The translations under genes were made by a program, and so were the position numbers. Under the pieces are notes generated by a model. It was not told the origin of the DNA and did not search any database. It saw only the letters and a program-made list of their open reading frames with translations. From a virus, in UHGV virus genome UHGV-0159506: a stretch of 17,827 bases of DNA; one strand, 5' to 3'. Shown piece by piece: positions 1,526 through 1,591 of this stretch (positions within the stretch are counted from its first letter, which is position 1; the number at the start of each line of letters is the position of its first letter).

Positions 1526-1542
1526 ATTGCTCTAATAAAAAA
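1526..1542 (+). promoter_or_regulatory. C1-repressor operator-like site (14/17 match to ATTGCTCTAATAAATTT)
   Basis: Sequence ATTGCTCTAATAAAAAA read directly; the first 14 positions match the P1 C1 operator consensus as I recall it. Confidence 0.4.
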
Positions 1543-1565
1543 CGTGATGAGTGTACATCACGTTT
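1540..1565 (-). terminator. putative rho-independent terminator for the upstream minus-strand operon
   Basis: Perfect 10-bp stem (AAACGTGATG / CATCACGTTT) with a 6-nt loop. On the minus strand it is followed by TTTTTTATT. It lies 30-50 nt downstream of the stop codon at 1593-1595. The stem is AT-rich, so strength is moderate. Confidence 0.5.
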
Positions 1566-1574
1566 CAAAAATAT

Positions 1575-1591
1575 GGAATTATTAGAGCAAT
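1575..1591 (-). promoter_or_regulatory. C1-repressor operator-like site (14/17), inverted relative to the 1526-1542 site
   Basis: The reverse complement reads ATTGCTCTAATAATTCC. With the 1526-1542 site it forms a split palindrome flanking the terminator hairpin. Confidence 0.4.

Follow-up and report, generated by a model that had tools for sequence, protein, structure and literature searches.

The 81-bp gap between the genes pmgQ and pmgR of this P1-like genome probably functions as a compressed operon boundary (a reading to which a probability of about 65% is given), in which two C1 operators, a sigma-70 promoter and an intrinsic terminator overlap. The operators, Op86a and Op86b, are known from P1; they are inverted monomer sites for the repressor, 49 bp apart centre to centre. 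The promoter of pmgR-pmgS would sit between or under them, be it the annotated PpmgR and/or one whose -10 element is the loop of a hairpin, and the hairpin itself, with an 11-pair stem, a 6-nt loop and a U-tract, is expected to terminate the transcripts arriving from pmgL-pmgQ. The operator pair and the promoter are already known from the annotations of P1 and P7, and the reach of the arrangement beyond P1 biology is small; what is added here is evidence that the hairpin between the operators is a conserved RNA element of the gene strand, one that shares bases with the promoter as well as with a repressor site.

The window, that is, the whole stretch of 17,827 nucleotides that was analysed, is the reverse complement of approximately 66.0-83.7 kb of P1, and the region of interest shows 99.1-99.6% identity to P1, P7 and SJ46 over 1.2 kb. 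According to the list of open reading frames (ORFs), all the genes adjoining Op86a and Op86b are read on the minus strand. The elements of the boundary, from pmgQ downstream, are the following:

1593 to 2294, minus strand: pmgQ, last gene of the upstream unit pmgL-pmgQ (ORF list, with the P1 annotation transferred at ~99% identity)
1575 to 1591, minus strand: Op86a (OpmgRa), ATTGCTCTAATAATTCC, 14/17 with 3 mismatches to the consensus, annotated in P1 and P7
1590-1585, minus strand: -35 element of the annotated PpmgR, TTGCTC, inside Op86a
1562 to 1567, minus strand: -10 element of the annotated PpmgR, TGAAAC here and TAAAAC in P1, inside the 5' arm of the hairpin
1539 to 1566, minus strand: terminator-like hairpin, GAAACGTGATG / TACACT / CATCACGTTTT, 11 pairs including one G·U, -13.4 kcal/mol
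1550 to 1555, minus strand: hairpin loop, TACACT, candidate alternative -10 element, with a weak -35 element TTCCAT at 1573-1578
1534 to 1542, minus strand: U-tract, the T run TTTTTTATT straight after the stem, overlapping the 3' end of Op86b
1526 to 1542, plus strand: Op86b (OpmgRb), ATTGCTCTAATAAAAAA, 14/17 with 3 mismatches to the consensus, annotated in P1 and P7
1512 to 1525, minus strand: pmgR leader, 14 nt, with a ribosome-binding site AGGGTG at 1521-1516
1293 to 1511, minus strand: pmgR, 72 aa, first gene of the controlled unit (P1 annotation)
29 to 1291, minus strand: pmgS, 420 aa, second gene of the controlled unit (ORF list, P1 annotation)

The stop codon of pmgQ (TAA, 1595-1593) lies one base short of Op86a. 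The first-pass annotation had placed the hairpin and the operators ahead of the 420-aa gene, overlooking the small gene directly downstream; the first gene after the boundary is the 72-aa pmgR, followed by pmgS. The gene pmgR is essential, and its deletion leads to unjoined heads and tails (PMC9024508), and both pmgR and pmgS rank with the best-conserved genes of P1-like phage-plasmids (PMC9603915). The ORF list also holds a 91-aa frame (1293-1568, minus strand) with a TTG start within the hairpin; the annotated start of pmgR is the ATG at 1511 (72 aa), with the ribosome-binding site ahead of it. On the other side of the boundary, some plasmids match the query 1250-1900 only to query position 484-530, inside pmgQ (~1730-1771 of the window), and a recombination breakpoint in this gene, with alternative pmgQ alleles (hdmD in some records), is suggested.

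C1 recognizes an asymmetric 17-bp consensus, and 22 C1 operators are dispersed over P1 (PMC8546580). When the whole window was searched with the consensus ATTGCTCTAATAAATTT, allowing up to 3 mismatches, five matches were obtained, versus a mean of 0.07 in shuffled controls, of which 0/200 reached five. Apart from Op86a and Op86b, these matches are:

5199 to 5215: Op82, match to the consensus, annotated in P1
15050 to 15066, plus strand, and 15061 to 15077, minus strand: bivalent ban operator Obanab (Op72ab), two 17-mers with an 11-bp offset, match to the consensus, annotated in P1

The annotated Op83 (Oppp; 4292-4308, TATGCACTAATTAATTT) has 4 mismatches to the consensus and was, therefore, missed at this threshold. 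The two inverted 14/17 operator-like sites that had been reported at 1526-1542 and 1575-1591 are thus recovered by the consensus search and coincide with annotated sites of P1 and P7, and the compact overlap of the same half-sites described at 15050-15077 corresponds to the bivalent ban operator Op72ab.

By their sequence and position, these two sites can be identified as the P1-type C1 operators Op86a and Op86b, at the same locus. The P1 record AF234172 lists OpmgRa (formerly Op86a) and OpmgRb (formerly Op86b) as "phage repressor C1" sites, with the note that OpmgRa/Op86a "controls expression of pmgR and pmgS", and the same two sites are annotated in P7 as Op(sht a/b). The locus, including PpmgR, is therefore that of P1 and P7, with matching positions, identical operators and 99% identity over the region, and binding of C1 to both sites would be expected from the GenBank notes. 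A literature search on Op86 and the operator names returned nothing useful.

Both Op86a and Op86b are perfect at consensus positions 1-13, and a repeat search accordingly finds a perfect 13-nt inverted repeat (1526-1538 / 1579-1591) with arms 40 nt apart. The only mismatches of Op86b are its last three positions, AAA for TTT, because the U-tract at 1534-1542 forms the 3' end of this operator. The pair resembles the bivalent P1 operators Op72ab (ban) and Op99ab (c1), which likewise consist of two asymmetric 17-bp inverted sites at a C1-controlled promoter. However, the sites of Op72ab and Op99ab overlap with an 11-bp offset and make one compact near-palindrome, whereas Op86a and Op86b lie 49 bp apart, centre to centre, with the promoter core and the hairpin between them, and hence do not belong to the bivalent class represented by Op72ab. 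In a near-complete record of an E. coli P1-like plasmid, this is the sole split inverted pair with 49-bp spacing at up to 3 mismatches.

In order to follow the arrangement through related genomes, loci were gathered in IMG/VR with PmgS as the anchor, independently of the intergenic sequence (n = 80). The hairpin is present in 80/80 of these loci and both operators, at up to 3 mismatches, in 79/80. In the 78 loci without indels, minor alleles affect one in 34 operator positions (one of 17 in Op86a and zero in Op86b), and the number of minor-allele loci per site is 2.86 in the 14-nt pmgR leader, 1.4 at the end of pmgQ and 0 in Op86b. No other stretch of the region is as polymorphic as the leader (1512-1525), whose variants include CTACA, ATACA, TTACA, CCATA, and CCAAA.

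The same layout and spacing were also found beyond the P1 lineage, in Cronobacter phage JK004 (a lineage that includes a related metagenome contig), in a group of Salmonella plasmids (pCVMN1543 and CP053320), and in the IMG/VR locus L063. The flanking genes of these three lineages are ~70% identical to those of P1 (71% nucleotide identity for JK004). The operator cores are identical across the four lineages, and the six-U run after the stem and the A-tract before it are kept in all of them. A search of genome contigs with PmgS yielded two near-identical loci only, and looser pattern scans of IMG/VR and metagenomes revealed no new lineage besides the JK004-like contig. In distant PmgS relatives with 20-25% identity (a Shigella dysenteriae plasmid and Vibrio p0908), the arrangement is not shared and the region is unalignable. 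In the S. dysenteriae plasmid NZ_CP026816.1, the gene of the PmgS-like protein (23% identity) is separated from a small gene upstream of it by a canonical terminator, CCCGCCCAATGGCGGGTTTTTT, together with an A/T-rich segment containing AATTACTAATAAAAT (2395-2510 of the locus), a boundary position that differs from that in P1.

Two simple explanations of the sequence itself can be weighed against this conservation. According to the first, the operator-like sites and the hairpin would be chance matches, a proposal whose probability is negligible. The A/T richness of the region is the only feature that would favour it, as opposed to the excess of operator matches described above, the one terminator-like match found where 0.02 are expected, and the conservation across lineages.

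According to the second, which had been raised by the first-pass annotation, the half-sites once overlapped like those of Op72ab and a hairpin element was later inserted between them. The 13-nt operator cores do mirror each other perfectly, like those of the bivalent ban operator elsewhere in the window, but an insertion is very improbable for several reasons. The compact form, with overlapping Op86a/b and no hairpin, was not found in searches of phages, plasmids, IMG/VR, and metagenomes, and the 49-bp spacing does not vary among the four lineages; of the 80 loci, only two depart from it, by a 1-nt indel. In addition, the space between the operators also holds the promoter spacer and the -10 element, and the hairpin changes by compensation rather than as a foreign block (see below). 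The hairpin sequence occurs in 585 of 5,426 complete E. coli genomes, with a median of one occurrence per genome, and a single time in each of the loci fetched, so that it is single-copy per element. A dispersed mobile repeat was discarded as its origin, the hairpin being single-copy and ancestral to the four lineages.

The core of the hairpin consists of two perfectly complementary 10-nt arms (1540-1549 and 1556-1565) around a 6-nt loop, nested in the 13-nt repeat of the operators. On the minus strand it reads AAACGTGATG-TACACT-CATCACGTTT, followed by TTTATTAGAGCAAT, and the repeat search and the folding agree with the 10-bp hairpin plus U-tract that had been noticed on this strand between the operators. 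The gene-strand sequence after the complete 11-pair stem and the 6-nt loop is UUUUUUAUU, whereas the plus strand continues past the hairpin with CAAAAATA and has no U-tract. The hairpin begins 27 nt past the stop codon of pmgQ, on the same strand.

The pattern of substitutions is that of a structure formed by the gene-strand RNA. Two base pairs of the stem differ in both members when P1 is compared with the other lineages (G-C replaced by A-U, and A-U by G-C). In six further pairs one member alone varies, and in every case the pairing passes through G·U; on the other strand, these pairs would be C·A mismatches. The energy of the gene-strand hairpin stays between -13.0 and -13.6 kcal/mol in all lineages, versus -5.8 to -13.3 kcal/mol for the opposite strand, and 97% of the helix cells are paired. 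The covariation rests on essentially one deep split, that between P1 and the other three lineages, and the two compensatory changes may for this reason represent just one or two events. According to these data, the hairpin appears to be a conserved RNA element of the gene strand.

As in the intrinsic (Rho-independent) terminators found at operon boundaries, the element comprises a stem-loop and a U-tract just downstream of a stop codon, is preceded by an A-tract and shows covariation at the RNA level. It has the sequence features of such a terminator, namely stem-loop and U-tract, position at the end of a unit, and pairing maintained on the RNA strand, and as a predicted terminator it very probably shields the essential pmgR-pmgS unit from transcription arriving from pmgL-pmgQ. 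The stem is modest (4 G-C pairs, relatively A/U-rich) and termination may consequently be partial. Contrary to usual operon-boundary terminators, the hairpin is located inside the next promoter, between the -35 element and the start, and not upstream of it. Its relatively A/U-rich stem and a U-tract that is also part of a repressor site set it apart from usual intrinsic terminators. The proposal that repressor binding and termination are physically coupled is right in this literal sense, that is, in the sharing of the U-tract at 1534-1542 with Op86b.

A built-in terminator scan of the window called no terminator at the hairpin, in our view because a stem extended to its maximum, with A and G opposite T, takes in four T's from the run. 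A scan of our own, in which the T run was anchored at the last G-C pair, identified the hairpin as the sole stem-plus-T-run element on either strand of the 17.8-kb window, versus 0.02 expected. Neither the P1 nor the P7 GenBank record annotates the hairpin as a terminator, which says little, because the P1 record contains no terminator at all in the 29 kb inspected. An Rfam search of positions 1400-1720, at E-values up to 10, gave noise only, and that of the whole window returned only the three tRNA genes (minus strand, 12710-12782, 14242-14314, and 14320-14392), which correspond to tRNA-Ile, tRNA-Thr, and tRNA-Asn of P1.

A different role for the same RNA structure would be in stability or processing. 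The hairpin could act as a barrier to 3' exonucleases for the pmgL-pmgQ mRNA, or else form an RNase III-type site together with an outer 13-bp stem, built from the two operator sequences in read-through RNA, which would separate the fates of the upstream and downstream mRNAs. The minus strand of 1520-1600 is in fact predicted to fold into such a composite of a 13-bp outer and an 11-bp inner stem (-27.3 kcal/mol, z = -9.0), and the covariation indicates that RNA pairing matters, but not why. This role is nevertheless unlikely. The six-U run directly after the stem and the A-tract before it, conserved in all lineages, are a signature of termination, and the outer stem is invariant, so that it receives no support at the RNA level, and its conservation is already explained by C1 binding.

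The promoter of the pmgR-pmgS unit is less clearly defined than its operators. In the annotation of P1 and P7 type, a predicted sigma-70 promoter, PpmgR, is placed among the operators, between pmgQ and pmgR-pmgS (P1 record). In this window it reads TTGCTC / 17 bp / TGAAAC and matches the consensus at 7/12 positions, without the A at -11 and without the T at -7; the difference from P1 is TGAAAC for TAAAAC in the -10 element. A G at position 1566, where P1 has A, keeps a G·U pair in the stem and should weaken the annotated -10 element, and it is shared by a few IMG/VR loci and JK004. Across lineages this element reads TAAAAC in P1, TGAAAC in this window, TGAAGC in JK004, and TAAAGC in pCVMN1543, so that the T at -7 is absent from all of them and the A at -11 has been lost twice (in this window and in JK004). 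A built-in sigma-70 consensus scan called no strong promoter at the intergenic region.

The hairpin loop offers a second candidate for the -10 element. It reads TACACT in the P1 lineage and TATCAT in the other three, that is, the T-A-n-n-n-T frame has been kept and the three middle bases have all changed. With a crude position-weight matrix of our own, the annotated PpmgR scores 1.7 here versus 4.9 in P1, and in the three lineages outside P1 the loop gives the best promoter, with scores of 8.2-9.2 versus -0.2 to 4.9 for the annotated one. It can be tentatively proposed, at odds well short of even, that the 28-nt palindrome is used twice, as the terminator of pmgL-pmgQ in the form of RNA and, through its loop, as the true -10 element of pmgR in the form of DNA. 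Transcription would then start at the beginning of the T run, with Op86a over the -35 region and Op86b over approximately +1 to +17, and two C1 monomers would bracket the site of the polymerase. A loop that serves as a real -10 element may be the one new point of this locus. If so, the annotated PpmgR would need correcting, the terminator and the promoter core would be the same bases inside a split operator, and the 66 bp involved would be a compact natural part for synthetic biology, composed of a terminator, a repressible promoter, and two operators.

Other promoters were also considered at this location. The conserved 9-bp box found ~22 bp upstream of P1 late (Lpa-dependent) promoters was not found within 1512-1592 when compared with the boxes of LPhot (AAGTTACTT), LPpac (ATGTGACTT), and LPpmgL (TAGTCATTT). 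An antisense promoter starting from the TTGCTC of Op86b was rejected, since the plus-strand hexamers located 16-18 bp downstream match TATAAT at no more than 1/6 positions and none is acceptable in any lineage.

Published expression data are consistent with a promoter in this gap. In an RNA-seq study of P1vir infection at an MOI of 10, reported as log2 fold change over pre-infection (bioRxiv 10.64898/2025.12.28.696737, Table S1), pmgQ reaches 5.94 at 10 min and 8.08 at 20 min, pmgR 7.96 and 9.36, and pmgS 8.21 and 10.04, in values that are not length-normalised. The rise from pmgQ to pmgR, observed despite pmgR being three times shorter than pmgQ, fits an active intergenic promoter, as a rough reading of fold changes over a near-zero baseline in which differing mRNA stabilities could give the same result. 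In the same study, the block from pmgL to pmgV is on by 10 min, along with ban, ant1, and repL, and the late genes 5, 6, 24, 7, 25, 26, pacA, and pacB are near zero even at 20 min. The early expression of pmgL-pmgV fits control by the C1 operators Op82, Op83, Op86, and Op88 better than late control alone. The "putative morphogenetic" genes (pmgL to pmgV and pap, of which pmgL to pmgS occupy 29-5250 of the window) are expressed at 10 min alongside the early genes. CRISPRi roadblocks in pmgO-pmgQ did not reduce plating, and the knock-down of pmgR was itself scored non-essential (PMC10695390). The argument from polarity is hence weak, because the result for pmgR is a false negative, given that the gene is essential by deletion.

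Under the operon-boundary reading, the cycle of this region might be as follows. In the lysogen, C1, helped by Lxc, would occupy both operators, with Op86a lying over the -35 region and Op86b over the U-tract and the early transcribed region, and the two bound repressors together would close the promoter and reinforce the RNA terminator with protein roadblocks. Once C1 is inactivated, pmgR-pmgS would be transcribed early from their own promoter. In either promoter model the start site would be inside the hairpin or at its 3' end, and the local transcripts would be expected to escape termination because a start at either place leaves the 5' arm out. Read-through transcripts from upstream would, on the contrary, form the full stem and stop at least in part.

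The role of the two paired sites could also be sought mainly at the protein level, a proposal that overlaps with the operon-boundary reading. Two C1 monomers, bridged by Lxc or connected by a short-range loop, would clamp the promoter, or Op86b would act as a roadblock, and the hairpin would be secondary. Some of the features of Op86b suit this idea, since this site has no plausible plus-strand promoter of its own, yet is invariant and lies in the transcribed region, and the split pair at 49 bp is, as mentioned above, unique in the near-complete P1-like plasmid record at up to 3 mismatches. Furthermore, Lxc has been reported to strengthen the complexes of C1 with its operators (PMC8546580). 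The proposal is, however, less likely than not, as 49 bp represents ~4.7 helical turns, which is no obvious in-phase distance, and the strand-specific RNA covariation of the hairpin would be left unexplained.

The roadblock version of this proposal has been likened here to the "stoperators" of mycobacteriophage L5. The L5 repressor gp71 is monomeric and binds to many asymmetric sites, some of them in transcribed regions, where it is able to block elongation. C1 of P1 is not known to block elongation in an orientation-dependent manner. Op86b also differs from the L5 stoperators in having both a promoter-proximal partner site and an RNA terminator.

The association of terminators with C1 operators seems to be wider than this locus. 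In a scan of whole plasmids, comprising the near-complete E. coli P1-like record (CP027320.1) and a complete Salmonella arizonae relative (CP053320.1), distinct terminator-like hairpins lay within 200 nt of a C1 operator much more frequently than expected, in approximately 6 out of 12 cases for the former and 6 out of 19 for the latter, with a chance expectation of ~9% that refers to the E. coli plasmid only. In P1-like genomes, operon boundaries would thus seem to consist as a rule of a terminator with a C1-controlled promoter after it. Op86 represents the tightest case, at 18-19 nt, a distance at which the elements overlap. Another C1 operator, Op88 (OpmgT), is located directly after the stop codon of pap (P1 84293-84369; 194-270 of the locus L210), and ~35 nt past it there is a G+C-rich hairpin, ACATGCCGC/GCGGCATGT, whose T run is good on the opposite strand alone and which looks, therefore, like a terminator for leftward transcription.
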